Source: Candidatus Omnitrophota bacterium (GTDB taxonomy: Bacteria; Omnitrophota; Gorgyraeia; JABMRN01; RBG-13-46-9). From it: DNA of 64,000 nucleotides. Location of the stretch: the NCBI GenBank assembly GCA_030605095.1, contig JAUWBJ010000001.1, positions 10,942 through 74,941 of the forward strand. Reading direction: 5' to 3'. The translations under genes were made by a program, and so were the position numbers. Positions 687 through 13,841 of the stretch are shown piece by piece. Within the stretch, counting starts at the first letter, position 1. Every line of letters starts with the position of its first letter. The notes under the pieces are model-generated. The model did not search any database and was not told where the DNA came from. It worked only from the letters and a program-made list of their open reading frames with translations.

Positions 687-717
687 TTCACAATTTTCCC
701 TTGACTTCTTTTGTGAA
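687..717 (+). promoter_or_regulatory. Rex-box-like half-sites TTCACAA-N17-TTGTGAA flanking a TTGACT -35-like hexamer upstream of rex
   Basis: Both hexamer halves of the Rex operator consensus (TTGTGAA/TTCACAA) present as an inverted pair; unusual spacing. Confidence 0.4.
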
Positions 718-749
718 AAATGGTACAAAGTCTGTGAAGGTTGTTACAG

Positions 750-1379
750 ATGGGACAGAAGAAAATACCCGAAAGCACAATACCGCGGTTGGTTGTATAC
801 TTACGAGAAATCACAGCGCTTGCAAATATGAATATTCGGACCATATCGTCTGCCGAATTGGGGGAGAGAGTAAACTTAAGTGACGTGCAGGTCAGAAAGG
901 ACCTCGGGTATTTCGGCCAGTTCGGTGTAAGCGGTTCGGGATACGATACGACTGAACTAAAAGCCGCGTTAGAGAAGATACTGGGCAAGAATAAAACATG
1001 GAATGTGGCAGTTGTCGGGGTAGGGCACCTGGGTTCAGCGCTTTTGGCATATCCCGGATTTAAGAAACACGGGCTTAATCTGCTGATTGCATTTGATTCT
1101 GACACAAAAAAGATAGGAAAATCCATGAGCGGTGTCGCGATACAGTCTACAGATGAAATGCCAAAGGCAATCAAAGATAAAAAGATTTCTATAGGGGTTG
1201 TAGCTGTTCCCGCCGAACGCGCTCAAGAGGTTGCGGATAAACTTGTTTCAGCCGGCATTAAATGTATTCTGAATTTTGCACCTGCTTCGCTTAATGTACC
1301 GGAAGATATCAAGGTAAAGGATGTAGATCTTTCAAGAGAGCTTGAAACGCTCTCTTATTTTTTAGTCAATAAAAAATAA
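750..1379 (+). CDS. rex: redox-sensing transcriptional repressor Rex
   Basis: N-terminal wHTH (IPxxTxxRLxxYLR) followed by a Rossmann/CoA-binding-like NADH domain (VAVVGVGHLGSAL), typical Rex length; ATG at 750 has GAAGG RBS 10 nt upstream (track starts at TTG 741). Confidence 0.85.
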   Translation: MGQKKIPESTIPRLVVYLREITALANMNIRTISSAELGERVNLSDVQVRKDLGYFGQFGVSGSGYDTTELKAALEKILGKNKTWNVAVVGVGHLGSALLAYPGFKKHGLNLLIAFDSDTKKIGKSMSGVAIQSTDEMPKAIKDKKISIGVVAVPAERAQEVADKLVSAGIKCILNFAPASLNVPEDIKVKDVDLSRELETLSYFLVNKK

Positions 1380-1380
1380 C

Positions 1381-2406
1381 ATGCATTATATTTCCCAAAA
1401 TAATTTTTTTAAACTACTTGATGCATTAAAATCCAGTTATGAAGTTTACGTTCCTATAAAAAAAGGTGAACAGCGTTTTTACAAAAAATATATTGAACCT
1501 ACGGATGACATCGTAATCGGCGAGGTAAGGCCGTTTGAGCCGGTTAAGGCCTTCTTTGCGCAAGCAAGGGAAATAGTCGCAGAAGGTTTTAAAGATGATA
1601 TACCGCACAGCTCTGATAAGCCGTTTGCTATTATAGGAGTAAAAGCCTGCGACCTTAAAGGTTTTAAAGTCCAGGACCACGTATTTAAGAATCACGATTA
1701 TCAGGATCCATTCTACATTAAAAATCGCGAACAGAATCTTATAATAAGCGCAGATTGCACCTCTGTCATTGATACATGTTTTTGTCTTGCCTTAGGCATT
1801 AAACCCCATCCCCAGGAAGATTTCGATATCAATCTTTCCGAGATTAAAAGAGGCTTTGTTACAACGACGGGCTCCGATAAAGGAAAAGAGCTCCTTAAAA
1901 GATATTCTTCTTTATTTCAGGAAGCGGCCAAGGCAATTATTAATAAAAAAGAGCTGCAAAGAGCCAAGGTTATCGAGAAGGTAAAGGAGAATATCAGAGA
2001 GAATAAGGTGCCGCGTGAAGACTTATATAAAGGTATTATAGAGAGGAACTATGAATCTGATATCTGGCCGGAAGAGGCAAAGGAATGCGTAGAATGCGGG
2101 GCATGTAATACTATCTGTCCAACATGCCACTGTTTTCTCTTATATGACGAGAAAGATGATAAAAAGATGGAGCGTTTACGTATCTGGGATTCGTGTATGG
2201 TAAAGGATTTTGCGAGTGTCGCCGGAGGCGCTAATCCAAGGCCAAAGCTCTGGATGAGACTCCGAAACAGATTTGAGAAGAAATTCGACTTTTTCCCGAA
2301 AGTTGCCGATATTTATGCTTGCACAGGATGCGGCCGCTGCATATCCGCGTGTCCGGGAAAGATTGATATAAGGAAAGTCCTAACGAGATTAGTAGGAAAT
2401 GTATAG
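1381..2406 (+). CDS. iron-sulfur subunit, anaerobic sulfite reductase AsrA / sulfhydrogenase beta (HydB)-like
   Basis: 341 aa, two Cys clusters CVECGACNTICPTC and CTGCGRCISACP (4Fe-4S dicluster), size and position match AsrA/HydB. Confidence 0.7.
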   Translation: MHYISQNNFFKLLDALKSSYEVYVPIKKGEQRFYKKYIEPTDDIVIGEVRPFEPVKAFFAQAREIVAEGFKDDIPHSSDKPFAIIGVKACDLKGFKVQDHVFKNHDYQDPFYIKNREQNLIISADCTSVIDTCFCLALGIKPHPQEDFDINLSEIKRGFVTTTGSDKGKELLKRYSSLFQEAAKAIINKKELQRAKVIEKVKENIRENKVPREDLYKGIIERNYESDIWPEEAKECVECGACNTICPTCHCFLLYDEKDDKKMERLRIWDSCMVKDFASVAGGANPRPKLWMRLRNRFEKKFDFFPKVADIYACTGCGRCISACPGKIDIRKVLTRLVGNV

Positions 2407-3223
2407 ATCCAAGAATCCATATAGGCCAATCAAGACAGAGGTTCTCGACGTTATAAAAGAAACACCCACCATAAAAACCTTAAAGCTTAGGCCGGAAGAA
2501 CCAATAAGCTTTAAGACAGGTCAATTTATAGAGTTAACAATACCGGGAATAGGCGAGGCGCCTTTTACGCCTTCTTCGAAACCTTTTGTAACCGATGAGA
2601 TGGAAGTAACCGTAATGAAGGTGGGTAAGGTTACCGAGGAAATTCACCGGCTTAAAAAAGGTGATACCGTGGGATTGAGGGGGCCTTTTGGAAGCGGTTA
2701 TCCGTTGGATGATTTTAAGGGTAAAGAGGTGCTGGTTGTGGGCGGGGGATGCGGTTTTGCGCCACTTCGGAGCCTGATGTATTCCCTTTTTGGCATGAGC
2801 GGGGAATTTAAGAAGTTATTTTTCAGGGGCGGGTGTAAAAATCCCTCGGAATTTTTGTATAAACAAGAGATAGAAGAATGGACGAAGAGAGAAGACCTAA
2901 ATATCGCGCTTACGGTTGATACAGGCGACGAAACGTGGAAGAGAAACGTCGGCCTTGTGACCACTATCTTAGATAACGTAGAGATGGATTACAAAGATGG
3001 TATTGCGATCGTCTGCGGCCCCCCGATAATGATGAAGTTTGCAACTAAGAAACTACTGGATATGGGTTTTGAAGAGAAGAATCTCTATCTTTCCATGGAA
3101 AAGAATATGTCCTGTGGTATCGGCAAGTGCGGCCATTGCAGGATAGGGATATATTACGCATGCAAGGACGGCCCTGTTTTTCAGTATAGCAAGATAAAAG
3201 ATTTTCCGGAGATTTGGGAATAA
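2399..3223 (+). CDS. FAD/NAD(P)H-binding iron-sulfur subunit, AsrB / HydG / PyrK-like
   Basis: 274 aa; FAD/NAD-binding ferredoxin-reductase fold motifs (GGGCGFAPL) and C-terminal CGIGKCGHC 2Fe-2S motif. Confidence 0.75.
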   Translation: MYRSKNPYRPIKTEVLDVIKETPTIKTLKLRPEEPISFKTGQFIELTIPGIGEAPFTPSSKPFVTDEMEVTVMKVGKVTEEIHRLKKGDTVGLRGPFGSGYPLDDFKGKEVLVVGGGCGFAPLRSLMYSLFGMSGEFKKLFFRGGCKNPSEFLYKQEIEEWTKREDLNIALTVDTGDETWKRNVGLVTTILDNVEMDYKDGIAIVCGPPIMMKFATKKLLDMGFEEKNLYLSMEKNMSCGIGKCGHCRIGIYYACKDGPVFQYSKIKDFPEIWE

Positions 3224-3720
3224 TGGACAAAAAGCTATTTATTGACCTCGATATATGCGCCGCAGGCGAGTGTAAAGAGTGCGAGATTAAATGTAGCTAT
3301 TTGTATCATCCGGATAACAACGGTATTATTTCCATTGCTGAACTTGTAACTTACGCCCTCGTCTGCCGAAAATGCGAAGAGGCGCATTGTGTAAATGCAT
3401 GTCCGGTTGAGGCCCTTGAGCAGCAAAAAGATAAAGACAAGTTGTTGGTAAGGCATAATATGCGTTGCATCAGCTGTAAATCGTGCTCTCATGCCTGTCC
3501 TTACGGGAGTATTTATCCGGAACTCGTTCCTCTATTAGACCATAATTGTGATTTTTGCCTTGATAGAAGGGATGAAAAGGATGAGCCTTTATGTATAAAA
3601 ACCTGCTCTTACGGGGCGCTAAGCTTAAAGATGGGCGATATTAAATTGGATGAAAATACTTTTCTCGTAGGAGATTACCTGATGGTTCATTCTACGCATT
3701 GGGATAGGGAAAAGGTATGA
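3214..3720 (+). CDS. 4Fe-4S polyferredoxin
   Basis: 168 aa with several CxxCxxCxxxCP-type clusters (CRKCEEAHCVNACP, CISCKSCSHACPYG). Confidence 0.75.
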   Translation: MGIMDKKLFIDLDICAAGECKECEIKCSYLYHPDNNGIISIAELVTYALVCRKCEEAHCVNACPVEALEQQKDKDKLLVRHNMRCISCKSCSHACPYGSIYPELVPLLDHNCDFCLDRRDEKDEPLCIKTCSYGALSLKMGDIKLDENTFLVGDYLMVHSTHWDREKV

Positions 3721-4640
3721 TTTACATAGTTTACCTGATATTTTACGGATTTTTGGTAACTGCGATAATCGGGCTTTTAGCCAGCTGGATTGATAGAAAG
3801 GTTACGGCAAGGGTCCAGTATCGGGTGGGGCCTCCGATTTTGCAGCCATTAATAGATATTATAAAGCTTTCGGGAAAGGAAACGCTTATTCCGAGAGGGG
3901 TTTCAAAAATAACCTTTTTGGCAGCGCCCCTTGTCGGATTATCAGGCGTGATATTGGTTTCCACTTTGTTGTGGGTAAATAATATAAACCAGAGCAATAG
4001 TTTTATGGGAGACCTGATAGTAGCGATATATCTTCTGGCTATTCCTTCCATAAGTATTATTATGGGCGGTTTTGCGTCAGGGAATCCGCTCGCAAGCCTC
4101 GGGGCCTCGCGTGAAATGAAACTTATCTTAAGTTACGAACTTCCCTTCGTGCTCGCGGTATTTGTTCCTGTGATAAGATCCGGATTTGCCATCAAACTCG
4201 GCCAGATTTTAACTTTTCAAGCTGAGAATGGGGTTATTGTCGGAAGCTGGTCAGGGGCTCTGGCTTTAATTGTTGTTATACTCTGCATGCAGGCAAAACT
4301 GGCGCTCGTTCCCTTTGATATGCCGGAGGCAGAAACAGAGATTATGGGCGGGACGCTAATAGAATATTCCGGTTCCGGGCTTGCCGTTTATCGCCTTATG
4401 AAGAATATGCTTTTATTTACACTGCCTTTCTTTGTGATAATTCTCTTTATGGGCGGGTTAAGGCTGGATGGTATGCACCTTTTATACGGGATATTAAGAT
4501 ATGTCGGATTGGTGGCGCTTATAACGGTTATACGAAATACCAACCCGCGCGTAAGAATCGACCAGGCCGTCAGGTTTTTCTGGGGGCCGGTAACTGTCAT
4601 TGCGATAATAGCGGTTGTGTTGGCGTTTAGGGGTTTATAA
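3717..4640 (+). CDS. group-4 hydrogenase membrane subunit, NuoH/EchB/MbhM-like
   Basis: Polytopic membrane protein with RKxxARxQxRxGP motif characteristic of NuoH/HycD/EchB. Confidence 0.85.
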   Translation: MIYIVYLIFYGFLVTAIIGLLASWIDRKVTARVQYRVGPPILQPLIDIIKLSGKETLIPRGVSKITFLAAPLVGLSGVILVSTLLWVNNINQSNSFMGDLIVAIYLLAIPSISIIMGGFASGNPLASLGASREMKLILSYELPFVLAVFVPVIRSGFAIKLGQILTFQAENGVIVGSWSGALALIVVILCMQAKLALVPFDMPEAETEIMGGTLIEYSGSGLAVYRLMKNMLLFTLPFFVIILFMGGLRLDGMHLLYGILRYVGLVALITVIRNTNPRVRIDQAVRFFWGPVTVIAIIAVVLAFRGL

Positions 4641-4641
4641 T

Positions 4642-5064
4642 ATGGGCGTAAAATTAAAGGCATTGTTAAAATCACCCTGGGTATTTCATCTTTCTACCGG
4701 AAGTTGCAATAACTGTGATATCGAAATATTAGACTGCCTTACGCCGAGATTCGATATCGAAAGGTTCGGCATGCTTTTGGCGGGAAGCATAAAGCACGCC
4801 GACGTACTTCTCGTTACAGGTTCCGGTAACAGAAAATCCATGGAAAGGGTAAAACGATTATATGAACAGGTGCCAAAACCCTGCCTGGTGGTTGCCATTG
4901 GCGAATGTTCCTTATCGAGAGGCATGTTTATACATAGCTATAATTGCCCTGTACCTGTAGATAAGGTTATACCGGTTGATGTCTATATACCCGGATGCCC
5001 CCCTAAACCGGAGGCGATTATTGCCGGGGTTGTGAAGTTGATAGGGAAAGTTGGAGGGAAATGA
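4642..5064 (+). CDS. [NiFe]-hydrogenase small subunit, NuoB/EchC/MbhJ-like
   Basis: Cys ligands of proximal 4Fe-4S cluster incl. C-terminal GCPPKPEA motif; ATG at 4642 (track ORF begins at internal GTG 4615). Confidence 0.85.
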   Translation: MGVKLKALLKSPWVFHLSTGSCNNCDIEILDCLTPRFDIERFGMLLAGSIKHADVLLVTGSGNRKSMERVKRLYEQVPKPCLVVAIGECSLSRGMFIHSYNCPVPVDKVIPVDVYIPGCPPKPEAIIAGVVKLIGKVGGK

Positions 5065-5534
5065 GAAGAGAAGAGGTTTTAAAAGATATAAGGGAGAGAT
5101 TTAAGGAAGATATTCTCGACATCATCGATAAATCTCCGAAGAGGGTATACATAGAGATTAAACCCGATTCGATAAGAGAGGTTGCGAAATACATTTTTAA
5201 GGATTTGGGCGCAAGGTTTAATATTGCTTCAGGGGTGGACGCAAGGGAGCATATGGAGATTCTTTATCATTTTACTTTTGAAGATATAAATCTGTTGATT
5301 TCATTTCGAGTAAAGCTCGAAAAATCGAAATTAGAGATAGATTCACTCGCATCTGTCTTTGAAGGCGCAAACTGGATAGAGAGAGAGATTCACGAACTTT
5401 TAGGTATAAATTTTAAAGGCCATCCCGATTTGAGAAAATTGCTTTTACCTGACAACTGGCCCAAAGGCGTGTACCCTTTAAGACGTGATTACAAAGAGTG
5501 GGATAAGAAGGCGATTAGGGATAGGGGAGTGTAA
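5061..5534 (+). CDS. NuoC/EchD/MbhK-like 30-kDa subunit
   Basis: 157 aa, NuoC-family conserved ExHELLGI-like segment (EREIHELLGINF). Confidence 0.75.
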   Translation: MRREEVLKDIRERFKEDILDIIDKSPKRVYIEIKPDSIREVAKYIFKDLGARFNIASGVDAREHMEILYHFTFEDINLLISFRVKLEKSKLEIDSLASVFEGANWIEREIHELLGINFKGHPDLRKLLLPDNWPKGVYPLRRDYKEWDKKAIRDRGV

Positions 5535-6713
5535 ATGGCGAAGACAATAATTCCGATAGGCCCGTATCATCCTTTACAGGAAGAGCCGGAATTTTTTACT
5601 CTTACCGTTGACGGTGAGCGTGTCGTAGATATAGATGTGAGGATAGGGTATAATCATAGAGGCATAGAGAAGCTCTCCGAGATGAAGACCTTTGACCAGT
5701 CCACCTTTGTTATTGAAAGAATATGCGGTATATGTTCTACAAGCCATCCCTTTGCTTACACAAGGGCAGTAGAGGATATTATCGGTGTAGAGGTACCCGA
5801 GAGAGCAAAATATATAAGGACTATAATTGCTGAAGGCGAAAGGATACATTCGCATCTATTGTGGTTAGGTCTTGCCGGCCACTTTTTAGGATATAATACA
5901 GTCTACATGTGGGCGTGGAAACTGAGAGAGGAAATCCTGGATGTAATGGAGATTCTCTCCGGAAACAGAAATAACTATGCCATGTTTAAACCCGGTGGGG
6001 TAAGAAGAGATATTAAATCCGGAGATATTCCCGGCGTGATTAAGAAAATAGATTCTATCGTGCCGACGCTAACAATGCTTAAGAAAGCCGTTATCGATGA
6101 CCCTGTTTTACACGCTCGCACAAAAGGAATAGGCGTCCTTTCTAAAGAAGATGCCATAAATTATAGCGCTCTTGGCCCTACATCGCGAGCTTCGGGAGTA
6201 GCTAGAGATGTAAGAAAAGATTCTCCCTACGGAGTTTATGATAAAGTAGAATGGGACATGATAGTTACGCAAAATGGCGATGTCTTTGATAAAGCGGTTG
6301 TGAGGATACTGGAAGCTTTTGAGTCGATAAAGATAATGAAATACTGCCTTTTAAAGCTGCCTAAAGGAGAAATAGATTTAAATATAAAGAACATCCCTCC
6401 CGGAGAAGGTATCGGCCATATCGAGGCACCGAGGGGCGAGGTATTTCACTATGTAAGGTCTGACGGCACAAATAGACCCGTCCGGCACAAAGTAAGGGCG
6501 CCTACGTTTATGAATTTACCTACATATAAAGCAACCGTTGTAGGAGAAACAATATCAGATGCGACAATAATTCTGGCTGCTATCGACCCGTGCTATTGCT
6601 GTACGGAACGAATGGCAGTACGAAATATAAAAGGAAAGAAACTATATAATGGAGAGGACTTGATTAAGCTTTCGCAGGAGAAGACCGAGAAAGTAAGAAG
6701 AGGCCTAAAATGA
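5535..6713 (+). CDS. [NiFe]-hydrogenase large subunit, group 4 (NuoD/EchE/MbhL-like)
   Basis: N-terminal RICGICSTSHP (RxCGxCxxxH) and C-terminal DPCYCC (DPCxxC) Ni-Fe ligand motifs; NuoD-like fold. Confidence 0.9.
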   Translation: MAKTIIPIGPYHPLQEEPEFFTLTVDGERVVDIDVRIGYNHRGIEKLSEMKTFDQSTFVIERICGICSTSHPFAYTRAVEDIIGVEVPERAKYIRTIIAEGERIHSHLLWLGLAGHFLGYNTVYMWAWKLREEILDVMEILSGNRNNYAMFKPGGVRRDIKSGDIPGVIKKIDSIVPTLTMLKKAVIDDPVLHARTKGIGVLSKEDAINYSALGPTSRASGVARDVRKDSPYGVYDKVEWDMIVTQNGDVFDKAVVRILEAFESIKIMKYCLLKLPKGEIDLNIKNIPPGEGIGHIEAPRGEVFHYVRSDGTNRPVRHKVRAPTFMNLPTYKATVVGETISDATIILAAIDPCYCCTERMAVRNIKGKKLYNGEDLIKLSQEKTEKVRRGLK

Positions 6714-7333
6714 AAGAGAAAATTATTGCGAATCTCAAGAAAATGACAGACGTTCTCTCAGAGATGGTCGGCCTTGTATATCAGGGGTTCATAGAAAATG
6801 ATGCTCATTATTTAAACAGGGCGTTAAACAAAGAGCGCATAATGGATGATTTTGAAAAGGAGATAACTGCCTCCATTGTCCAGGTTTTCAAGACGCTGGA
6901 TAAAAAAAAGCAAAAAGAATTTGTTTTACTTGAACAAACTGCGCAAAATATAGAACGAATGGGCGATGAATTACGTTCTTTAATGGAACGCATAGAAATT
7001 AAGATCGCAGAAAACCTTTTCTTTAGTGAAATGGGCGTAGAGCAATATAAAGAAACTTTTGAAAAAATGAGAAAATCTGTAAACCTGACTATAGAGTTTT
7101 TAAATGAAGATAAACACGAACTTTTAAAAATGATATTAAAAAATGGCGATGAAATTAAAGAAACAGTTGAGAAATATAGAACAGAACATCTTGAGCGTCT
7201 GGCAAAGGGTATTTGCGAGCCGCGCGCCGCGAACATGTATTTTGACATGCTTGATTTTACGGGGAATATTGCTCGCCATTGCACTAATATAGCGAGAATC
7301 TATAAGGAAAAATATGGATTTAGAATTTTTTAG
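6710..7333 (+). CDS. PhoU-domain-like protein embedded in hydrogenase operon
   Basis: 207 aa, alpha-helical, C-terminal NIARHCTNIARIY resembles the PhoU ERIGDHATNIAE motif. Confidence 0.4.
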   Translation: MKEKIIANLKKMTDVLSEMVGLVYQGFIENDAHYLNRALNKERIMDDFEKEITASIVQVFKTLDKKKQKEFVLLEQTAQNIERMGDELRSLMERIEIKIAENLFFSEMGVEQYKETFEKMRKSVNLTIEFLNEDKHELLKMILKNGDEIKETVEKYRTEHLERLAKGICEPRAANMYFDMLDFTGNIARHCTNIARIYKEKYGFRIF

Positions 7334-8969
7334 ATTTGATAATCTATCCAATTTTGTAGGGATATTCATAGTCTTCTTTTCTTTGCTGATTATCATTTAT
7401 TCTTTTGGTTTCATGCGCAAAAGAAAAGGGCTCGCCGGCTACTACCTATATATAATCCTTACGTTGATTGCCTCCTTAGGAGTTGTCTTTTCCAATAACC
7501 TCATTTTACTTATGGTATTCTGGGGATTTTTAGCGTTTCTTCTATATTTGTTGATTGGTTTCGGACAAAAGAAAAACACACATTATACGGCTAAGAAAGC
7601 GTTTATAATAATTGGCGGTAGTGATGCTCTTATGCTGTTGGGATTGGCTTTAATCTGGCGTCTTGCAGGAACACTCCAGATGGATAAATTGAGCATAGCG
7701 CTAAATACAAAACCTGCTATCTGGGCCTATCTTTGTCTGGCAATAGGCGCATTTGCTAAAGCAGGGGCTATGCCTCTACATACATGGGTTCCTGATACTG
7801 CCGAAGATGCGCCTACTCCTGTAACGGCATATTTGCCCGCATCTTTAGATAAGCTTCTTGGAATATACTTCTTGGCCAGGATTTCTATGAATGTTTTCCA
7901 GATGAATAACGCTATGAATACGTTTTTGATGGCATTAGGCAGCTTCACAATTGTTGCCGCAGTTATGATGGCACTTATTCAGCATGATTTAAAGAGACTT
8001 TTAGGCTATCACGCCGTAAGCCAGGTCGGATATATGGTGTTAGGAATAGGGACCGGTAACCCGATAGGTATAGCCGGTGGATTGTTTCATATGCTAAACA
8101 ATGCTATATATAAATCGTGCCTCTTTTTGGGCGGTGGCGCGGTAGAGAAAAAGGCCGGAACCACCGATTTAAAGAAATTGGGCGGGTTTGCTAAAATTAT
8201 GCCGATTACCTTTGTTACGTTTTTAATCGCTTCGTTCGCAATATCAGGCGTTCCGCCTTTTAACGGCTTTGCTTCAAAATGGATGGTCTATCAGGGAGTG
8301 ATAGAGACAGCCAAAAATGGCGGGCATCTGTGGATAATATGGCTTGTTGCCGCTCTTTTTGGTAGCGCCCTTACCCTTGCGAGTTTTATGAAACTCGTGC
8401 ACACTGTATTTTTGGGCCAGCCCTCAAAAGCCCACAGCCAAGAGCCAGGAGCTCGCAGTCCTAAAGAAACCGGGCCGACCATGTGGATTCCAACCGTTAT
8501 CTTAGCGGCGTTATGTATTATTTTCGGCGTTTTTGCTTACAGAGTACCACTAAGGATGTTTATCTTACCAAGTTTAAATCAGGCTGTGACCTTTTCCGGC
8601 ACGTGGTTTTCGAGCCTCGCCGGTATTCTGTTATTGGCAGGGATTGCAATTGGTTTTATAATTTATCTTTTAGGTTCAGCAGTTAAGACAAGAGAGGCGC
8701 AAATATTTGTGGGCGGAGAAATTCTAAGCGATGTACCACAAATGAGGGTTTCAGGAGTCGAATTTTATAATACAATAAAAGAAATCGGTATATTAAAAAT
8801 TATCTATAGATTAGCAGAAAAGAAGGCATTTGATATTTATGAGCTGTTAAAGAAATTCTGCTTCATATTTACCAGGATATTACGCTTTATCCATACGGGG
8901 ATTTTGACTACATATCTTATCTGGATATTATTGGGAATGATAATTCTGTTTTTCGTTTTAATGAGATAA
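7314..8969 (+). CDS. Mrp antiporter MnhA/D-like subunit (NuoL/MbhH-like)
   Basis: 551-aa polytopic protein with HTWVPDTAEDAPTPVTAYL (NuoL/M/N proton-pumping antiporter signature). Confidence 0.85.
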   Translation: MDLEFFRFDNLSNFVGIFIVFFSLLIIIYSFGFMRKRKGLAGYYLYIILTLIASLGVVFSNNLILLMVFWGFLAFLLYLLIGFGQKKNTHYTAKKAFIIIGGSDALMLLGLALIWRLAGTLQMDKLSIALNTKPAIWAYLCLAIGAFAKAGAMPLHTWVPDTAEDAPTPVTAYLPASLDKLLGIYFLARISMNVFQMNNAMNTFLMALGSFTIVAAVMMALIQHDLKRLLGYHAVSQVGYMVLGIGTGNPIGIAGGLFHMLNNAIYKSCLFLGGGAVEKKAGTTDLKKLGGFAKIMPITFVTFLIASFAISGVPPFNGFASKWMVYQGVIETAKNGGHLWIIWLVAALFGSALTLASFMKLVHTVFLGQPSKAHSQEPGARSPKETGPTMWIPTVILAALCIIFGVFAYRVPLRMFILPSLNQAVTFSGTWFSSLAGILLLAGIAIGFIIYLLGSAVKTREAQIFVGGEILSDVPQMRVSGVEFYNTIKEIGILKIIYRLAEKKAFDIYELLKKFCFIFTRILRFIHTGILTTYLIWILLGMIILFFVLMR

Positions 8970-9518
8970 ATGATGATTGAGCTATACATACTTTTATTAT
9001 TTATGATTGCGGCTGCCTTTATTGCAGTCCAGATAAAGGACCTTCTCTCTTCCATTATTGCCGTGGGAGCAGCAGGGCTTGCTTTATCGGTAGCGTTTTT
9101 AATCTTAAAAGCGCCGGACCTGGCTATTACTCAATTAGTAGTAGAAATTCTTTGTCTTATTATCTTAATCAGGGCTACAGTAAAAAGAGACACTGCATCA
9201 ACCAAAGATTTCCGCGGCTTTCTTACCACAATAGTGAGCCTGGTGTTTATCGGGGTATTTCTCTTCTTTGCCTATCTTGCCTTAAAGGAGCTGCCTGATT
9301 TTGGCAAGCCCATAATGAGGGTAGCCGCCAATTTCATCGAGATGGGACAGGCAAAGACCGGTGCCAGCAATTTAGTTAGCTCAGTGATTTTAGATTTCCG
9401 TGCTTATGATACATTGGGTGAAGCAACAGTGCTATTTACAGCGGTAATCGGCACATTAGCGATTTTGCGCCGAATCGGGCGTAAGAAAAAAGATGAGGTC
9501 GTTAAAGAAAATGACTAA
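8970..9518 (+). CDS. Mrp antiporter MnhB-like subunit (N-terminal-type)
   Basis: Membrane protein with MnhB-domain-like hydrophobic segments; position in Mrp gene order. Confidence 0.6.
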   Translation: MMIELYILLLFMIAAAFIAVQIKDLLSSIIAVGAAGLALSVAFLILKAPDLAITQLVVEILCLIILIRATVKRDTASTKDFRGFLTTIVSLVFIGVFLFFAYLALKELPDFGKPIMRVAANFIEMGQAKTGASNLVSSVILDFRAYDTLGEATVLFTAVIGTLAILRRIGRKKKDEVVKEND

Positions 9519-9966
9519 AAATAGCAAAGGCATGACTTTAATTGTCAAGACCATCACCCGGCTTACAGTTGGGCTGATACTTTTATATGGTATCTATATA
9601 GTGCTGCACGGACATCTCACGCCTGGAGGAGGATTTGCGGGCGGAGTGATAATTGCTCTTTCATTTGTCCATCTGATGTTGGCTTTTGGCAAAGAGGTAG
9701 CTTTAAAGAAGGTTTCCCGTCCCATAGCCAGTTTATTTGAGAGTATCGGTGCGCTTATGTTTCTTTCTATTGCGGTAATTGGCTTTGTTGGAGGATATTT
9801 CTTTTTGAACTTTTTTATAAATAAAGGTACCCCATTTAAACTTTTCAGTGCAGGGATTATGCCTTTATGTAATATCGCTATCTCATTTAAGGTGGGAGCA
9901 GGTCTTTTTGCTATATTTGTGGCTCTGGTGTTATTAAAGATAGATTCGGAGGATAAAGAAAGATGA
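9511..9966 (+). CDS. Mrp antiporter MnhB-like subunit (C-terminal-type)
   Basis: HGHLTPGGGFAGG motif typical of MnhB/MbhF; ATG 9511 overlaps the upstream stop by 8 nt (track start 9493). Confidence 0.7.
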   Translation: MTKNSKGMTLIVKTITRLTVGLILLYGIYIVLHGHLTPGGGFAGGVIIALSFVHLMLAFGKEVALKKVSRPIASLFESIGALMFLSIAVIGFVGGYFFLNFFINKGTPFKLFSAGIMPLCNIAISFKVGAGLFAIFVALVLLKIDSEDKER

Positions 9967-10298
9967 TTTACCTTTTGTGCCTTGTGCTTTTTTCTATCGG
10001 ATTATATTGTATCCTGGTAAAAAGAAACTTGATTAAGATCATTATAGGCTTAGTAATAATGGAATATGCCGTGAATCTTGCATTTATCTTGTTCGGTTAT
10101 CGGCTTGGCGGCCGGGCGCCAATACTGGCCCAGGACCAGACAATAAAGAATATGGTTGACCCTTTACCGCAGGCTTTAGTTTTAACAGCCATAGTTATCG
10201 GACTGGCAACTACTGCTTTAATAGTGGCAATCGCAGTCAGAATTTATGATAGATATAAGACTTTTGACATAACAAAGATAAGGAGACTGAAGGGTTGA
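9963..10298 (+). CDS. Mrp antiporter MnhC-like subunit (NuoK-like)
   Basis: 111-aa three-TM protein, NuoK/MnhC-like. Confidence 0.75.
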   Translation: MIYLLCLVLFSIGLYCILVKRNLIKIIIGLVIMEYAVNLAFILFGYRLGGRAPILAQDQTIKNMVDPLPQALVLTAIVIGLATTALIVAIAVRIYDRYKTFDITKIRRLKG

Positions 10299-11788
10299 AT
10301 ATTATTCCTCTATTTGTAGTTATACCGTTAGGCAGCGCATTTTTGATTTCTCTTTTGGGTAAGAGGATAAAAGGTTTGCCCGATTCCTTAGCCAATTTAG
10401 GAACACTTCTTATGGCAGGCCTTTCTATATATTCTATATTTTTAATCAAAGAGGTAGGTGTTCAGGTGTATAAGGTAGGCGGATGGACTCCACCAATAGG
10501 TATTTCTATGGTCTTGGATGGCTTAAGCTCTTTTATGTTAGTTACGGTTAATTTGACCGCCTTTTTGATAACGCTATTTTCCATAAGCTATATGAAAAAA
10601 TACACAGCCAAATGGAAATTTTATACGCTATTTATGCTCATGCTGGGGGGCATGAACGGCGTGATTATTACAGGAGATATGTTTAACCTCTTTGTCTTTT
10701 TAGAAATTGCTGCGATTGCGAGCTATGCCCTGGTGGCTTTTGGCATTGAGCACGAGGAGCTCGAAGCGTCATTTAAGTACATGGTAATGGGAGGGGTTGC
10801 ATCACTTTTCATTCTTCTTGGAATTGCGCTTTTATATAGCCTTACTTCAACATTAAATATGGCTGATATGGGCCGAGTTTTAACTGCCCAGGGGCCAAGC
10901 AAATTAGTTCTATTTGTATCAGTACTATTCCTGGTGGGATTTGGCCTAAAGGCGGCGATAATGCCATTTCATGCCTGGCTTCCGGATGCCCATCCTTCAG
11001 CGCCGGCGCCAATTTCAGCTATGCTTTCCGGGCTTTTGATTAAGGTGCTGGGTATCTATGCATTGATGAGAATATTTTTCAATGTGTTAGGAGCACAACC
11101 CGCAATTTTGGATATTTTATTAGTCTTAGGGACTATATCTATGGTAGCGGGAGCACTCCTGGCGATAGGGCAGGAAGATATAAAAAGGATGCTGGCATAT
11201 TCCAGCATCAGTCAGATAGGATATATAGTTTTAGCAATGGGAATATGGACACCGCTTGCTATATTGGGCGCACTTTTCCATCTATTCAATCATGCCATAT
11301 TTAAATCGCTTTTGTTTTTAAATTCCGGGGCAATAGAATATTCGACGGGAACGAGAGATTTAAGAGAGATGGGTGGATTAAATGCCCGAATGCCGCTAAC
11401 CGGAACCACAAGTTTAATCGGCTCTATGTCAATATCCGGAATACCGCCTCTAAGCGGTTTTTGGAGTAAGTTGATTATTATCTTTGCCGCTATACAAAGC
11501 GGCCATTTTGTGCTGGCATTGATAGCTATTCTGGTGAGCGTTATAACATTGGCATATTATCTGAAACTGCAAAGATACGCCTTCTTTGGAAATCTGCAAG
11601 ATAAATGGAAGCATATTTTAGAAGTGCCGTTTACTATGAAATTGTCGATGGTTATATTAGCCTTAATTTGTATAATGGCGGGTGCGCTTCTGCTTCCCGG
11701 CGTAAGAGAGATATTTCTTAAACCGGCGCAAGATGCTTTATATGCTGGAAAAGATTATGCCGCTACTGTATTTGAGAGTATAAGATGA
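10295..11788 (+). CDS. Mrp antiporter MnhD-like subunit (NuoM-like)
   Basis: HAWLPDAHPSAPAPISAML antiporter signature, 497 aa. Confidence 0.85.
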   Translation: MNIIPLFVVIPLGSAFLISLLGKRIKGLPDSLANLGTLLMAGLSIYSIFLIKEVGVQVYKVGGWTPPIGISMVLDGLSSFMLVTVNLTAFLITLFSISYMKKYTAKWKFYTLFMLMLGGMNGVIITGDMFNLFVFLEIAAIASYALVAFGIEHEELEASFKYMVMGGVASLFILLGIALLYSLTSTLNMADMGRVLTAQGPSKLVLFVSVLFLVGFGLKAAIMPFHAWLPDAHPSAPAPISAMLSGLLIKVLGIYALMRIFFNVLGAQPAILDILLVLGTISMVAGALLAIGQEDIKRMLAYSSISQIGYIVLAMGIWTPLAILGALFHLFNHAIFKSLLFLNSGAIEYSTGTRDLREMGGLNARMPLTGTTSLIGSMSISGIPPLSGFWSKLIIIFAAIQSGHFVLALIAILVSVITLAYYLKLQRYAFFGNLQDKWKHILEVPFTMKLSMVILALICIMAGALLLPGVREIFLKPAQDALYAGKDYAATVFESIR

Positions 11789-12279
11789 AAAGCAAAATTG
11801 TTTTATTTATCGTGGGTCTTTTAGTGTGGCTCCTTTTGAGCTGGCCGGCTGATACTCAACATCTTTTAGTGGGAATTGTAATAGCCGGCTTCGTAGCTTT
11901 TATGACCGGGGATATGTTTGTCCAGAGGCCCCACCTATTTACACAGATTAGAAGATACTTATGGCTTTTGTATTATCTGCCAATATTTTTGTGGGAATGC
12001 ATTAAGGCAAATTTAGATGTTGCCTATAGGGTAATTCATCCAGCTATGCCGATAAATCCAGGCATTGTGAAGGTAAAAACGACTTTGAAATCTGAGACTG
12101 GGCTAACTTTCCTGGCTAATTCTATTACTTTAACGCCGGGGACACTAACCGTGGATATAGACCAGGAAAGAGGATTTCTTTACGTCCACTGGATAGATGT
12201 AAAGGATAAGGATGTGGAGAAAGCGACAGAGATAGTGGTGGAACGCTTTGAGAGGATTTTAAAAAGGATTTTTGAATAG
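11785..12279 (+). CDS. Mrp antiporter MnhE-like subunit
   Basis: 164 aa, two N-terminal TM segments then soluble domain, MnhE-like; gene order. Confidence 0.65.
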   Translation: MKSKIVLFIVGLLVWLLLSWPADTQHLLVGIVIAGFVAFMTGDMFVQRPHLFTQIRRYLWLLYYLPIFLWECIKANLDVAYRVIHPAMPINPGIVKVKTTLKSETGLTFLANSITLTPGTLTVDIDQERGFLYVHWIDVKDKDVEKATEIVVERFERILKRIFE

Positions 12280-12330
12280 ACGCCGTTGCGAGGAGCGACA
12301 GCGACGAAGCAATCTCAAAAGGTGTAAGGT

Positions 12331-12699
12331 ATGAAAATATTTAGGTGGTTAATAGGCGTATTTGTTATATTAGGCATTTTGGCTGTGATTATATTTTATC
12401 CTCTAAAGATTCTTTTTTATCCCGACCTTCCTTTTATACCGCTATTTACACGTTGTCTTTTTATACTTTTGCTATCCTGCTTTCTCTGCCTTTACCGCAT
12501 ATTGAGAGGGCCAACGGCACCGGACAGAATTGTCGCCATTGATATATTGGGAATATTGATTGTCGGTTTCTGCGCACTTTTGTGTATTCCCACAGGCCGA
12601 AGCTGGTATATAGATATAGGAATAGCCTGGGCGCTACAGAGTTTTATCGGAACACTGGCATTAGCGAAATATTTAGAAGGAAAGGATTTTGATGAATGA
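12331..12699 (+). CDS. Mrp antiporter MnhF-like subunit
   Basis: 122-aa three-TM small membrane protein in Mrp order. Confidence 0.55.
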   Translation: MKIFRWLIGVFVILGILAVIIFYPLKILFYPDLPFIPLFTRCLFILLLSCFLCLYRILRGPTAPDRIVAIDILGILIVGFCALLCIPTGRSWYIDIGIAWALQSFIGTLALAKYLEGKDFDE

Positions 12700-13027
12700 T
12701 ATCTTAGGGATAATTTTTATTGGCGTAGGACTGGCCTTTGATTTCTTTGGATGTCTGGGCTTGTTGAGATTACCCGATGTATATAATCGTCTTCAGGCCT
12801 CTACAAAATGCGTGACTTTAGGAACGTGTAGCATATTGTTTGGTGTATTTTTAATGTTGGGACCTACTGCCGCAGGCATAAAGTCACTCTTATGTATTAT
12901 ATTTTTGATACTTACCACTCCAGTTTCCGCACACGCAATTGCGAGGGGTGCACACAGATCCGGGGTAAAACTCTGGGAAGGAAGCATTGTTGATAGGTAT
13001 AAGGAAGATAAAGAGGGAGAGGCGTAA
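12689..13027 (+). CDS. Mrp antiporter MnhG-like subunit
   Basis: 112 aa; LRLPDVYNRLQASTKCVTLG matches MnhG conserved segment. Confidence 0.7.
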   Translation: MMNDILGIIFIGVGLAFDFFGCLGLLRLPDVYNRLQASTKCVTLGTCSILFGVFLMLGPTAAGIKSLLCIIFLILTTPVSAHAIARGAHRSGVKLWEGSIVDRYKEDKEGEA

Positions 13028-13062
13028 TAGCTATAAGCTTTAAGCTATAAGCAGGAATAGAT

Positions 13063-13677
13063 ATGAAACTACCCAAGATTAGAGAACTTATAGAGGCGAT
13101 AAAAGCAGTGATAAAAGGGCCTTACACGTCTAAATTTCCTAAGGTGCCGCATGAACCACATCCGAATTTCAGGGGCAGGCCCAAGTTTAATCAGGAGAAA
13201 TGTGTAGGGTGCCTTGCGTGCGAAGAGGTTTGTCCGGTAGATGCTATTGCGCATAAAGATATAATCGATGACAAGGAAAAGCCGAAAAGGACAATGATTC
13301 ATTATTCAGATACGTGCATATTCTGCGGCCAATGTGAAGCAGCGTGCATTGCCGAACATGAAGGGATTAAACAATCTAACGAGTGGGAACTCTCGTTTTT
13401 TGATAGAAAACGAGAAGGCCAGGAAACGATTGATAAGGAACTGCAACTTTGCGAGATATGCGCCTCGCCGATTGCATGTAAAGACCACTTAAAATGGATT
13501 TCTGAAAAGATAGGTGAATTAACATATTCGAGCCCTACCTTATACCTATCCCGCCTTAAAAGCCTTGGTATTATAGATGAAAATATCATATCTGCAATGA
13601 AAGATAAGGGCCGCTCCGACAGGGTAAAAATTCTATGTGCCCGTTGCAGGAGAGAAACAACCCTAACCACTAAATAA
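13063..13677 (+). CDS. NuoI/MbhN-like 2x[4Fe-4S] ferredoxin subunit with Cys-rich C-terminal extension
   Basis: CVGCLACEEVCPVDAI and CIFCGQCEAACI motifs; extra CxxC...CxxC tail. Confidence 0.75.
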   Translation: MKLPKIRELIEAIKAVIKGPYTSKFPKVPHEPHPNFRGRPKFNQEKCVGCLACEEVCPVDAIAHKDIIDDKEKPKRTMIHYSDTCIFCGQCEAACIAEHEGIKQSNEWELSFFDRKREGQETIDKELQLCEICASPIACKDHLKWISEKIGELTYSSPTLYLSRLKSLGIIDENIISAMKDKGRSDRVKILCARCRRETTLTTK

Positions 13678-13682: not shown

Positions 13683-13841
13683 AAGGGGACGTTTCACTTT
13701 GCTATAATTATTTACAAACAAAGAAGTTGTAACATGCCATTTTCCAAAATCAAAAGGATAAAGGATATACTTAAAAGTGGAAAATGAGCGTTTATATCGT
13801 ATTGCAATATAAGGAGTTATGACAAAGTGAAACGTCCCCTT
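13683..13841 (+). promoter_or_regulatory. 19-bp perfect long-range inverted repeat bracketing the NuoI-like/hycI intergenic region
   Basis: AAGGGGACGTTTCACTTTG (13683-13701, 6 nt after the upstream stop) pairs with CAAAGTGAAACGTCCCCTT (13823-13841), which contains the hycI GTG start. Confidence 0.6.

Follow-up and report, generated by a model that had tools for sequence, protein, structure and literature searches.

The closest described system is the 16-subunit "Hun" operon (HunA-P), which was reported in Omnitrophica, with CGIC and CYCC motifs and an assignment to HydDB group 4g (Glass et al. 2021). Published HydDB runs placed Hun in [NiFe] group 4g, and "enigmatic" was the label given to the same hydrogenase type by Carnevali et al. 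(2019). Hun is uncharacterised and has never been purified. In the membrane-bound hydrogenase Mbh, ferredoxin docks directly on the NuoI-like subunit, and no flavoprotein is required. In formate hydrogenlyase (FHL), HycB plugs formate dehydrogenase into HycF; HunC resembles HycB, and HunP resembles HycF, of the E. coli enzyme (7z0s). Pyrococcus sulfhydrogenase I (SHI) has beta and gamma subunits to which HunA and HunB are related. Its physiological direction is from H2 to NADPH, and its sulfur reductase activity is an in vitro side reaction.

Locus and operon structure

The window, a stretch of 64,000 nucleotides from an uncultured Omnitrophota bacterium, contained a complete copy of the hun operon. 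Domain calls were made with Pfam, and family equivalogs were scored against NCBIfam cut-offs. One tightly packed gene string was found on the + strand at 701-13677, with rex followed by hunA-P and a PhoU-fold gene inside. The order was rex, an AsrA/HydB-like gene, an AsrB/HydG-like gene, a polyferredoxin, NuoH/B/C-like genes, the [NiFe] large subunit, the PhoU-fold gene, an Mrp set and a NuoI/HycF-like gene. Every gene listed in an earlier sequence-only reading was recovered with Pfam, in the order that it gave and on the + strand. The A-P gene order and the CGIC/CYCC signature agreed with the published Hun. HunG of the window was 88% identical to HunG of an Atribacteria MAG from Crystal Geyser, a site named among the sampling sites in the gene-neighbourhood figure legend of Glass et al. 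(2021). The sequence-only reading had overlooked that the cluster was the published operon.

All genes of the string are translationally coupled, and most neighbours overlapped or abutted (for example 2406/2399, 3720/3717, 5064/5061, 5534/5535 and 6713/6710). The widest intergenic gaps were 52 and 36 nt. The unit did not end at 13677; hycI, a hypA-like gene, truncated hypF, hypC, hypD and hypE continued to 17771. These maturation genes directly downstream had also been overlooked.

Catalytic core and Mrp module

The core genes were as follows.

3717-4640, + strand: hunD, NuoH/MbhM-like membrane subunit (PF00146, E 5.8e-62)
4615-5064, + strand: hunE, NuoB-like hydrogenase small subunit, likely start ATG 4642 (PF01058)
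5061-5534, + strand: hunF, NuoC-like subunit (PF00329)
5535-6713, + strand: hunG, [NiFe] large subunit (Pfam, motifs, PDB comparison)
13063-13677, + strand: hunP, NuoI/HycF-like 2x[4Fe-4S] subunit (Pfam; PDB HycF 7z0s_F; NCBIfam FHL iron-sulfur subunit)

The metal-binding motifs of HunG were intact (L1 RICGICSTSH, L2 DPCYCCTER) and the Ni-Fe motifs were invariant (n = 81 sequences). CYCC is the motif reported for HunG by Glass et al. (2021). Against solved relatives, HunG scored 312 bits with MbhL, 285 with HycE, about 210 with NuoD and 184 with MbsL. The proposal that this is a true hydrogenase and not an Mbx/Nuo-type protein was thus borne out by the intact cysteine motifs, by MbhL and HycE outscoring NuoD and MbsL, and by the adjacent hycI and hyp genes. 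HunG carried a 33-aa C-terminal tail after R359. HunE retained its four cluster cysteines (CxxC...GEC...GCPP) and was 78-95% identical between loci. HunP had a C-terminal extension of about 100 aa bearing CxxC...CxxC. Judged by domains and motifs, the core of HunD, HunE, HunF, HunG and HunP is of the Mbh/FHL type.

The membrane genes between hunG and hunP were assigned as follows.

7314-8969, + strand: hunH, MrpA N-terminal/NuoL-like antiporter subunit (Proton_antipo_M/N; NCBIfam NuoL, MrpA)
8970-9518, + strand: hunI, MbhD+MbhE-like, MrpA C-terminal part (PF13244 + PF20501)
9493-9966, + strand: hunJ, MnhB-like (PF04039)
9963-10298, + strand: hunK, MnhC/NuoK-like (PF00420)
10295-11788, + strand: hunL, MrpD/NuoN-like antiporter subunit (PF00361, E 8.5e-71)
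11785-12279, + strand: hunM, MnhE-like (PF01899)
12331-12699, + strand: hunN, MrpF-like (PF04066)
12689-13027, + strand: hunO, MnhG-like (PF03334)

By domain content, HunH-O is a full Mrp-type membrane module, in which MrpA is split into two separate genes (hunH and hunI).

PhoU-fold accessory and maturation genes

6710-7333, + strand: PhoU-fold accessory, outside the HunA-P set (Pfam PhoU x2)
13827-14294, + strand: hycI-type maturation endopeptidase (PF01750)
14287-17771, + strand: hypA-like (80 aa), truncated hypF, hypC, hypD, hypE (Pfam, NCBIfam)

The PhoU-fold protein scored 36.7 bits with the true PhoU model (cut-off 130), and its AF2 model (pLDDT 93.9) gave a TM of 0.85 to PhoU 4q25. Of 72 related loci, 5 carried its gene, and all contexts examined for its homologs were hun operons. 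This rare gene seems to be an optional accessory specific to hun, which is a new observation; it is conceivable that its product regulates the ion-translocating arm. The sequence-only reading had missed that this gene is an accessory in a minority of hun operons. HycI scored 106.7 bits with TIGR00142, just under the cut-off of 119, and passed the superfamily model; hycI followed hunP in 48 related loci. The truncated hypF held the Kae1-like half only, and the same hyp arrangement was found in one related locus (L082).

The HunABC module

1381-2406, + strand: hunA, AsrA/HydB-like FeS subunit (Fer4_22)
2399-3223, + strand: hunB, AsrB/HydG-like FAD + NAD(P) + [2Fe-2S] subunit (FAD_binding_6 + NAD_binding_1 + DHODB_Fe-S_bind)
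3214-3720, + strand: hunC, HycB/DmsB-type polyferredoxin, start codon uncertain (Fer4_11; PDB matches HDCR HycB4, FHL HycB)

The best PDB matches of HunA and HunB were the beta and gamma subunits of SHI, both over the full length (9nez_B, E 2.6e-41; 9nez_C, E 3.7e-54). The suggestion that the pair is of the sulfhydrogenase beta/gamma type was therefore upheld, and this placement of HunA and HunB among solved structures is new. HunA scored under the ShyB, HydB and AsrA cut-offs, and its Cys motifs were conserved in 57 orthologs. For HunB, AsrB ranked first in NCBIfam (247 bits, cut-off 288.6), followed by hydrogenase gamma models, PyrK and an Nfn-like model. Neither protein reached the curated cut-off of any named family, so the transfer of function from SHI or Asr is indirect. 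NCBIfam names the SHI gamma subunit an NADPH-dependent hydrogenase subunit.

The GGGxGxAPxR, CGPP and CGIGKCGHC...C motifs of HunB were conserved in 63 orthologs, and the FAD-site motif and four [2Fe-2S] cysteines were conserved across phyla. The conservation of these FNR-type nucleotide motifs is a new finding, and to judge by the alignments purifying selection has kept the FNR-type NAD(P) site of HunB complete in at least 10 phyla. The 16 Cys of HunC would suffice for four [4Fe-4S] clusters. HunA, HunB and HunC occurred together in every one of the 55 related loci in which they could be viewed, which had not been reported before, and they co-varied with the core subunits. This joint presence in other genomes, together with the gene overlaps, supported the view that the AsrAB-like pair lies in one unit with the hydrogenase.

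Rex and the promoter

701-729, + strand: candidate sigma-70 promoter of rex-hun, predicted from sequence (-35 TTGACT 701-706, extended -10 TGgTACAAA 721-729)
711-728, + strand: predicted Rex box A, TTGTGAAAAATGGTACAA (3 mismatches to TTGTGAA-N4-TTCACAA; overlaps the -10)
732-749, + strand: predicted Rex box B, CTGTGAAGGTTGTTACAG (4 mismatches; overlaps the RBS and abuts the rex start codon; weak in the window)
750-1379, + strand: rex, redox-sensing (NADH/NAD+) repressor (Put_DNA-bind_N + CoA_binding)

Rex passed both NCBIfam equivalogs, scoring 262 bits where the cut-off is 126 and 256 bits where it is 217. Its start is most likely ATG 750 (alternative 741). About 15 related loci had a TTGACa -35 at the equivalent site in front of rex. 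Box A alone was not significant in the window (4 matches, 4.5 expected); the same box was conserved at the same position in related loci. Box B was the positional ortholog of CTGTGAAtattgTCACAA, found 21 nt past box A in related loci. A scan of 948 kb gave 32 boxes that had no more than 2 mismatches; 28 of them fell in the 14.3 kb immediately preceding the first gene of the operon, and these included ten loci in which rex was not upstream. This strong concentration of 18-bp boxes upstream of hun operons, even with rex elsewhere in the locus, is new and supported the proposed link between Rex and the hydrogenase. Neither rex nor a box was found nearby in about 24 related loci, from Fermentibacteria, Hydrogenedentota, Desulfosarcina and Spirochaetota. 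By our own reasoning, Rex control would also be compatible with a ferredoxin-dependent H2-evolving hydrogenase and would be expected for one as well, so Rex does not identify the substrate.

Electron donor of Hun

We give about an even chance to a Rex-controlled Hun complex, known here from its genes, in which HunABC feed NAD(P)H electrons to the Ni-Fe site and this is coupled to ion movement in HunD/Mrp. NAD(P)H is plausible as the physiological donor or acceptor, given the homology and the conserved nucleotide-binding motifs; NAD(P)H here stands for NADH or NADPH. NAD(P)H would be oxidised at the FAD of HunB. HunA, a multi-cluster FeS protein, and HunC, a HycB-like four-cluster wire, would carry the electrons, with HunC plugging HunAB into HunP by analogy with formate hydrogenlyase. 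Through about 10 FeS clusters they would reach the Ni-Fe site, where protons would become H2, and H+ or Na+ movement in the HunD/Mrp arm would be coupled to the redox step. With an E0' of -320 mV for NAD(P)H against -414 mV for the H+/H2 couple at 1 bar, H2 formation from NAD(P)H is uphill and nears equilibrium only at about 1 Pa H2 (E' about -266 mV). Ion influx through the membrane arm would therefore most likely drive H2 release, and Hun may work in both directions when H2 is very low. Rex would occupy both boxes, which cover the promoter and RBS, and would depart as NADH/NAD+ rises; Hun would then be made when NADH needs reoxidation. HycI would trim the 33-residue HunG tail, and HypA, F', C, D and E would build the cofactor. 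Against NAD(P)H coupling count the published donor, ferredoxin, and the endergonic reaction except at very low H2. The weakness of the window's own boxes, with 3 and 4 mismatches, counts against the Rex part.

In the published model of Hun, the sole physiological donor is reduced ferredoxin, HunABC merely relay its electrons to the Ni-Fe site, and exergonic H2 evolution pumps H+ or Na+ outward as in Pyrococcus Mbh. Ferredoxin was proposed by Glass et al. (2021), and in HydDB group 4g is described as putatively ferredoxin-coupled. The energetics are straightforward, the catalytic core is nearest MbhL, and Rex control fits as well. However, Mbh manages without a flavoprotein, whereas HunB was never lost (55/55 loci), keeps its complete, selected NAD(P) site and has the gamma subunit of SHI as its nearest solved relative. 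We regard this model as possible but rather unlikely. The same wiring could also run in reverse, with H2 oxidised, NAD(P)+ reduced and ions pumped. That reaction is exergonic at high H2 and is the physiological direction of SHI, and acetogenesis, with a Wood-Ljungdahl pathway, is predicted for many of the Omnitrophota that have group 4g enzymes. However, Rex derepression at high NADH fits an NADH consumer and not a producer, and at a sediment H2 of about 1 Pa the energy yield is too small to translocate an ion. An uptake enzyme is thus improbable.

The flavoprotein and the exposed polyferredoxins are two potential entry points, and a membrane-bound confurcation (or bifurcation), in which NAD(P)H via HunAB and reduced ferredoxin via HunC or HunP jointly reduce protons, would solve the uphill step without spending the ion gradient. 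Soluble HydABC hydrogenases are the confurcating comparison. However, none of the known bifurcating modules (NfnB, HdrA, EtfAB or NuoF-like HydB) was encoded at the locus. The homologs of HunB include PyrK and NfnA, whose flavin is the non-bifurcating one; its counterpart in Nfn is the non-bifurcating small subunit. The full Mrp module would also remain unexplained. Bifurcation or confurcation, which the sequence-only reading had offered as an alternative, is therefore not supported and is quite improbable. HunAB might instead be a catalytic reductase module that acts on a sulfur compound or some other acceptor, making Hun an H2-dependent ion-pumping reductase. The AsrB model ranking first for HunB, the matches of HunA to ShyB, HydB and AsrA, and a molybdopterin oxidoreductase sometimes lying between hunB and hunC in related operons point that way. 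However, the operon had no AsrC/siroheme subunit or other catalytic partner, the 80 closest loci showed no insert between hunB and hunC, and such activity of SHI is a side reaction. We consider this reading very remote.

These results suggested, from homology and conserved motifs, that Hun connects H2 and ion pumping with NAD(P)H and not with ferredoxin alone. If Hun worked as an uptake enzyme, acetogenic Omnitrophota would gain reducing power and a Na+/H+ gradient.

Gene content of the locus and its identity as Hun

Between 700 and 17800 of the window, the + strand carried an unbroken string of mostly overlapping genes. Gene identities were assigned by Pfam, NCBIfam, and PDB comparisons, and the string was composed as follows.

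750-1379, + strand: rex
1381-2406, + strand: hunA, AsrA/HydB-like FeS protein
2399-3223, + strand: hunB, AsrB/HydG-like protein with FAD, NAD(P), and [2Fe-2S] domains
3214-3720, + strand: hunC, HycB-type polyferredoxin with 16 Cys
3717-5534, + strand: hunD, hunE, and hunF, which are NuoH-, NuoB-, and NuoC-like
5535-6713, + strand: hunG, [NiFe] large subunit
6710-7333, + strand: PhoU-fold gene
7314-13027, + strand: hunH-hunO, eight Mrp-like genes, from MrpA (split in two) to MrpG
13063-13677, + strand: hunP, NuoI/HycF-like
13827-17771, + strand: hycI, short hypA, C-terminal half of hypF, hypC, hypD, and hypE

Homologs of all seven subunits of the Mrp (CPA3) antiporter, MrpA-MrpG, were found in the window, with MrpA represented by HunH and HunI together and MrpB, C, D, E, F, and G by one protein each. 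The sequence-only reading had described a Rex-linked string with an AsrAB/HydBG-like module, a hydrogenase core, and an Mrp set, and this inventory was confirmed. Three points were corrected: rex most likely starts at ATG 750, MrpA is split in two, and the unit runs into the maturation genes.

Sixteen co-directional genes had the order of HunA-P, the 16-subunit 'Hun' complex named by Glass et al. 2021 (bioRxiv 10.1101/536078), and the sole addition was the PhoU-fold gene between hunG and hunH. In that study, HunAB was AsrAB-like, and HunG was placed in group 4g by HydDB with an unusual CGIC/CYCC motif pair. The window locus shared with Hun the 16-gene order, AsrAB-like HunAB, the CGIC/CYCC pair, the Mrp-like module, and the terminal NuoI-like subunit. 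Its host phylum was also among the reported hosts (Atribacteria, Omnitrophica, Elusimicrobia, Bacteroidetes, Firmicutes, and Kosmotoga). Unlike the published Hun, the window copy contains the PhoU-fold gene and is preceded by rex and candidate Rex boxes. A term search found neither 'PhoU' nor 'Rex' in the main text of Glass et al. 2021. Mrp-linked group 4g hydrogenases were also reported in Omnitrophota (Williams et al. 2021; Seymour et al. 2023), and the 4g class comes from published HydDB runs for both these enzymes and HunG. An 'enigmatic' group 4 [NiFe] hydrogenase of this same type was described in Saganbacteria RX5A, with closest relatives in Zixibacteria and Omnitrophica and an electron donor stated as unknown (Matheus Carnevali et al. 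2019, PMC6349859). It resembled the window locus in the hydrogenase core, the Mrp-like subunits, a cooF-like gene, and asrA/asrB-like genes. However, the RX5A locus also has an unclassified molybdopterin oxidoreductase, which neither the window nor any of its 80 closest relatives had. Two papers place a molybdopterin gene between hunB and hunC, and none of the 80 closest loci carried one at that position. The window locus is a further example of the known, biochemically uncharacterized Hun. What is new here is the invariance of HunAB and its relatives of solved structure, the evidence for a Rex regulon, the standing of the PhoU-fold gene as an accessory, and a cultured carrier.

Several features of the surrounding sequence were recorded. 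The + strand held nearly every credible gene of window 1-64000, and GC skew was positive in each 2-kb segment, which fits one replication arm with a strong gene-strand bias. Rfam and tRNA scans of the whole window gave no matches, and the remainder of the window had no Rnf, Nfn, or [FeFe] hydrogenase genes to throw light on the redox context. The hyp genes were followed at 17815-24304 by metal-related genes, including Fur (17815-18330), DUF5320, two NifX/FeMo-cofactor-binding-like proteins, two MinD/ParA-type NTPases with 4Fe-4S motifs (19836-21537), and NikR (23888-24304). A 420-aa protein (29950-31212) strongly matched both eukaryote-type hexokinase domains (PF00349 and PF03727), which are unusual among bacteria. 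A 1437-aa protein (55674-59987) combined BcrAD/BadFG ATPase domains with DUF2229, as in the CoA-enzyme activase type, and a membrane-type 4Fe-4S protein was encoded just 5' of it (54256-55431).

Hydrogenase core and maturation genes

HunG was compared with large subunits of solved structure. It scored highest against MbhL (312 bits) and HycE (285 bits), and lower against NuoD (about 210 bits) and MbsL (184 bits). The motifs RICGICSTSH (L1) and DPCYCCTER (L2), which contain all four Ni-Fe ligating cysteines, were invariant in 81 sequences. The small subunit HunE retained its cluster cysteines. HunG was thus a true hydrogenase and not a Nuo/Mbx-like protein, as the sequence-only reading had proposed from the motifs.

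Dedicated maturation genes followed hunP, and no hypB was seen in the window. Both hypA and hypF, at 14287-15572, were short. The hypA product had only 80 aa and covered profile positions 1-68 of 112. The hypF product consisted of the Kae1-like C-terminal half alone (model positions 391-738 of 741), and the acylphosphatase, zinc-finger, and YrdC parts were missing. The same arrangement of short hypA and half hypF was observed in another locus, L082.

Input module

HunA aligned over its full length with the beta subunit of sulfhydrogenase I (SHI) of Pyrococcus furiosus (9nez_B, E 2.6e-41), and HunB aligned end to end with the gamma subunit (9nez_C, E 3.7e-54). Both proteins scored under the curated NCBIfam cut-offs. 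HunA reached 185 bits against 690 for ShyB, 157 against 750 for HydB, and 133 against 323 for AsrA. HunB reached 247 against 289 for AsrB, its nearest model, followed by hydrogenase gamma-subunit models (HydG, 184 against 650). Since the scores were below the cut-offs for HydB, HydG, ShyB, ShyC, AsrA, and AsrB, HunA and HunB were regarded as a separate subfamily.

Pfam identified an FAD-binding, an NAD-binding, and a C-terminal 4-Cys [2Fe-2S] domain in HunB. The FAD-site loop GEAPFTPSS, GGGxGxAPxR, CGPP, and the four [2Fe-2S] cysteines were kept in 63 orthologs from many phyla. By these motifs, HunB is a predicted NAD(P)H-binding flavoprotein of the FNR type with PyrK/HydG/AsrB architecture. 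In the alignment with SHI gamma, a conserved Arg-Gly-Gly that follows strand two of the nucleotide-binding domain would be suggestive at most as a cue to NADH versus NADPH.

HunC had 16 cysteines in the HycB/DmsB pattern, and its PDB matches were HycB4 of HDCR and HycB of formate hydrogenlyase (FHL). HunP matched HycF of E. coli FHL. The layout of Hun thus copies FHL, in which a soluble dehydrogenase supplies HycB, HycF, and the small and large subunits in turn, with a HydBG/AsrAB-type flavoprotein pair replacing formate dehydrogenase. This design is our main argument for NAD(P)H as the substrate, and we infer the coupling from it. HunP also carried a C-terminal extension past the NuoI/HycF-like part (residues about 100-204) with a partly conserved CxxC...CxxC, which could bind an additional metal or serve for the docking of HunC.

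HunA, HunB, and HunC were all present in 55 of the 55 loci that extended far enough upstream, and their divergence tracked that of the core and Mrp subunits (rho 0.34-0.80). Based on this, the AsrAB-like pair was taken as an integral, co-inherited part of the enzyme. It was not a separate neighboring unit, in agreement with the embedded module that had been proposed at the outset.

Related loci across phyla

HunG relatives were scanned in one genome per GTDB species, and at least 578 were found. The best 80 were 81-92% identical to window HunG and are referred to as L001-L080. Their MAG labels were Omnitrophota, Atribacterota, Elusimicrobiota, Hydrogenedentota, Fermentibacteria/Aegiribacteria, Spirochaetota, Clostridia, and Desulfobacterota, and one was from an isolate, Desulfosarcina variabilis str. 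Montpellier. The nearest HunG homologs were 87-93% identical, and those with names were Candidatus Omnitrophota MAGs. HunB shared a 90% cluster with a protein of Omnitrophota bin17. The order of hunA-P was rigid across these loci in tblastn searches with the window proteins as queries.

Sequence identity within L001-L080 differed by subunit. HunE was 78-95% identical, Rex only 37-82%, and the Mrp-like subunits 33-81%. The far higher conservation of HunG and HunE across phyla points to very strong constraint or to a horizontal spread of the operon in recent times, and both may apply.

Some loci departed from the full arrangement. In three loci labeled Spirochaetota (L039, L069, and L074), hunP and hycI directly followed hunG with no Mrp module between. 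In L070 and L075, Mrp-like genes (33-66% identical) lay upstream of hunA on the opposite strand. These Spirochaetota-labeled loci represent a variant of Hun whose Mrp module is missing or split off. The locus most closely related to the window, in Omnitrophota bin17 (L007, CP070780.1, 6500-16489; HunB 89%), had rex-hunA..G followed by unrelated genes (B12/radical SAM, glycosyltransferases, and UDG), with neither Mrp genes nor hunP within 10 kb. Either this operon is truncated or the MAG was misassembled. The cultured isolate Desulfosarcina variabilis str. Montpellier (L068, NZ_CP159846.1, 6084732-6105904) carried complete hunA-P and hycI, without rex or a Rex box nearby. Upstream of its hun genes was a tandem universal stress protein, and the opposite strand encoded a Na+/H+ exchanger-EIIA fusion downstream of them.

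Rex and the predicted control of hun

The Rex protein cleared the NCBIfam cut-offs (NF003995, 262 bits against 126; NF003993, 256 bits against 217). The following elements were read upstream of rex in the window.

701-706, + strand: -35 element TTGACT of the candidate promoter
711-728, + strand: candidate Rex box TTGTGAAAAATGGTACAA, 3 mismatches to the 18-bp operator TTGTGAA-N4-TTCACAA
732-749, + strand: candidate Rex box CTGTGAAGGTTGTTACAG, 4 mismatches, overlapping the RBS and abutting the rex start codon

The 18-bp N4 form was taken from aligned upstream regions of related loci and then used for searches. A 20-bp consensus, TTGTGAA-N6-TTCACAA, gave only chance-level matches and was dropped, and the Clostridial variant TTGTTAA-N4-TTAACAA found nothing relevant.

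Within the window alone, Rex boxes were at chance level (4 matches against 4.5 expected). Across 948 kb, 28 of the 32 boxes with two or fewer mismatches fell in the 14.3 kb of sequence that immediately precedes the first gene of the operons. Where rex preceded hunA, the locus had two boxes, 21 nt apart. Ten loci lacked rex upstream of hunA (L021, L027, L029, L031, L032, L040, L046, L047, L052, and L055), and even so a box with one or two mismatches, usually TTGTGATTTTATTCACAA, preceded hunA by 44-184 nt. In nine loci, a Rex homolog of greater divergence (40-48% identity) was located downstream of hunP, and most of the ten loci just listed were among these nine. The Fermentibacteria, Hydrogenedentota, Spirochaetota, and Desulfosarcina loci had neither rex nor a box nearby. 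Because of the concentration of boxes upstream of the operons, hun is a predicted member of the Rex regulon in several lineages, and its expression would thus be tied to a high NADH/NAD+ ratio. The Rex link of the sequence-only reading was in this way upheld by the equivalog cut-offs and the box positions.

A terminator-like hairpin with a T-run (1334-1356) was observed within the last 45 nt of rex, just 5' of hunA. It was strong only in the window, L006, and L007 and was degraded elsewhere, and it encodes the conserved Rex C-terminus RELETLSYFL. The terminator scan gave 28 matches against 19 ± 4.6 in shuffles, which was not clearly above. A split between rex and hunA at this hairpin was set aside on these grounds.

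PhoU-fold accessory

The PhoU-fold protein scored 36.7 bits, below the TIGR02135 cut-off of 130, and its context was hun and not pst. A canonical PhoU was ruled out by these two results. It had no sequence match in the PDB. The predicted model was confident (pLDDT 93.9) and had the six helices of the PhoU fold (TM 0.85 against 4q25, with sequence identity of about 15%). The family comprised 160 proteins at E<1e-5, and the members with an organism name were Omnitrophota MAGs. Some members carried the source labels 'Na/Pi cotransporter family' or 'phosphate:Na+ symporter'. ERMGDE, NMYFDMLDFTGNxARH, and one Cys were invariant.

The gene was found in 5 of 72 related loci, always directly after hunG, and three further contexts that were examined were all hun operons. 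From this occurrence, it looks like an optional hun-specific accessory and not a stray insertion. In one of these three contexts (L081, 9001-9600), a homolog with 47% identity was observed between hunO and hunP instead of hunG and hunH, so the accessory was placed at two different hun positions. PhoU modulates the Pst phosphate transporter. By analogy, it is conceivable that the PhoU-fold protein controls the ion-translocating arm.

Comparison with known systems

The best solved relative of HunG was Mbh of Pyrococcus furiosus (group 4d, PDB 6CFW), at the 312 bits of MbhL. Mbh and Hun share a NuoB/C/D/H/I-like core and Mrp-derived subunits, and their gene order differs. Mbh has one antiporter-like subunit, MbhH. 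Unlike Mbh, Hun has two (HunH and HunL) and a full MrpA-G set. Ferredoxin is accepted directly by Mbh, which lacks both a flavoprotein and a HycB-like module.

HycE of E. coli FHL-1 (group 4a, PDB 7Z0S) was the second-best match of HunG. HunP resembled HycF and HunC resembled HycB, and both systems also have a HycI-type protease and a large subunit with a C-terminal tail. The common design is a soluble dehydrogenase, a HycB wire, and HycF. The dehydrogenase is FdhH in FHL-1 and the HydBG/AsrAB-like pair in Hun, whereas the membrane arm is HycC/HycD in FHL-1 and a full Mrp set in Hun. The relatives of HunAB are also placed differently. The partner of SHI beta/gamma (PDB 9NEZ) is a cytosolic group 3b dimer and that of AsrAB, from anaerobic sulfite reductase, is AsrC, whereas HunAB is attached to a membrane group 4 enzyme. 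The overall logic of Hun would match that of complex I, in that both would combine a nucleotide-oxidizing flavoprotein and a chain of FeS clusters with a NuoB/D site and antiporter-like subunits. However, HunABC is unrelated to NuoEFG, and the acceptor is H+ at the Ni-Fe site in Hun versus quinone in complex I.

Proposed mechanism and alternatives

NAD(P)H coupling of Hun is plausible from the domains and motifs of HunAB. NAD(P)H would be oxidized at the FAD of HunB, and electrons would pass through the HunB [2Fe-2S] cluster, the HunA clusters, four clusters of HunC, two of HunP, and the HunE cluster to Ni-Fe. H2 would be formed there, in a step coupled to H+/Na+ movement in the HunD/Mrp arm. 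The E0' of NAD(P)H is -320 mV, and that of H+/H2 is -414 mV at 1 bar, with a value of about -266 mV at 1 Pa H2. Electron transfer from NAD(P)H to H2 is therefore uphill save at very low H2. Ion influx would most likely drive the reaction, and it may be reversible. We give this ion-coupled NAD(P)H-to-H2 mechanism an even chance of being correct.

Glass et al. 2021 predicted ferredoxin-driven H2 evolution with H+/Na+ translocation, and a literature search found no paper that proposed NAD(P)H coupling of Hun or characterized Hun in Kosmotoga or Atribacter. Rex control suits an NADH-consuming role. By our own reasoning, it would also be compatible with a ferredoxin-dependent hydrogenase and does not prove the substrate. 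Where Glass et al. assume ferredoxin, the present data point to NAD(P)H at least as strongly, and ferredoxin as the sole donor is considered rather unlikely. Running in the opposite direction, Hun would be an H2-uptake, NAD(P)+-reducing ion pump. This is disfavored by the logic of Rex and is improbable.

Confurcation of NAD(P)H and ferredoxin would join both donors. The sequence-only reading had offered bifurcation or confurcation at the membrane as an alternative. However, no domain of a known bifurcating module (NfnB, HdrA, EtfAB, or NuoF-like HydB) was present in any of the 18 proteins, and this alternative was left unsupported and is very improbable. The rest of that interpretation (composition, true hydrogenase, sulfhydrogenase-type module, and Rex link) held. 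HunAB could also serve as a reductase of sulfur or another acceptor, given its AsrAB-like character, but no catalytic partner is encoded, and we consider this the remotest case.

In the most far-reaching reading, Hun may be an ion-motive NAD(P)H:H+ oxidoreductase, in effect a complex I with a hydrogenase at its end. Fermenters and syntrophs of anoxic sediments would use it to release the electrons of NADH as H2, spending a Na+/H+ gradient, or gaining one at very low H2, without ferredoxin or flavin-based confurcation. It would be Rex-induced at high NADH, occur in at least 578 species that span more than ten phyla yet keep the catalytic core unusually conserved, and in some lineages have a PhoU-fold regulator of the ion-translocating arm. 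This reading is tentative, and we put it somewhat short of an even chance.

Significance

A question at the center of fermentation and syntrophy is how anaerobes can reoxidize NADH with formation of H2 when this is thermodynamically uphill. The known solution is soluble electron-confurcating [FeFe] hydrogenases, which also require ferredoxin. If the published ferredoxin model of Hun holds, the locus is one more copy of a known operon. The analysis provides handles on the question, namely the cultured carrier Desulfosarcina variabilis str. Montpellier, defined Rex boxes, conserved nucleotide-site motifs of HunB, and a PhoU-fold accessory that is seemingly hun-specific. If Hun couples NAD(P)H and H2 via the Mrp-type arm, it would be a second, membrane-based solution. 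Hun would then be a missing functional link between Mbh-type hydrogenases and complex I, with consequences for how energy is budgeted in Omnitrophota, Atribacterota, and further lineages that abound in the subsurface.
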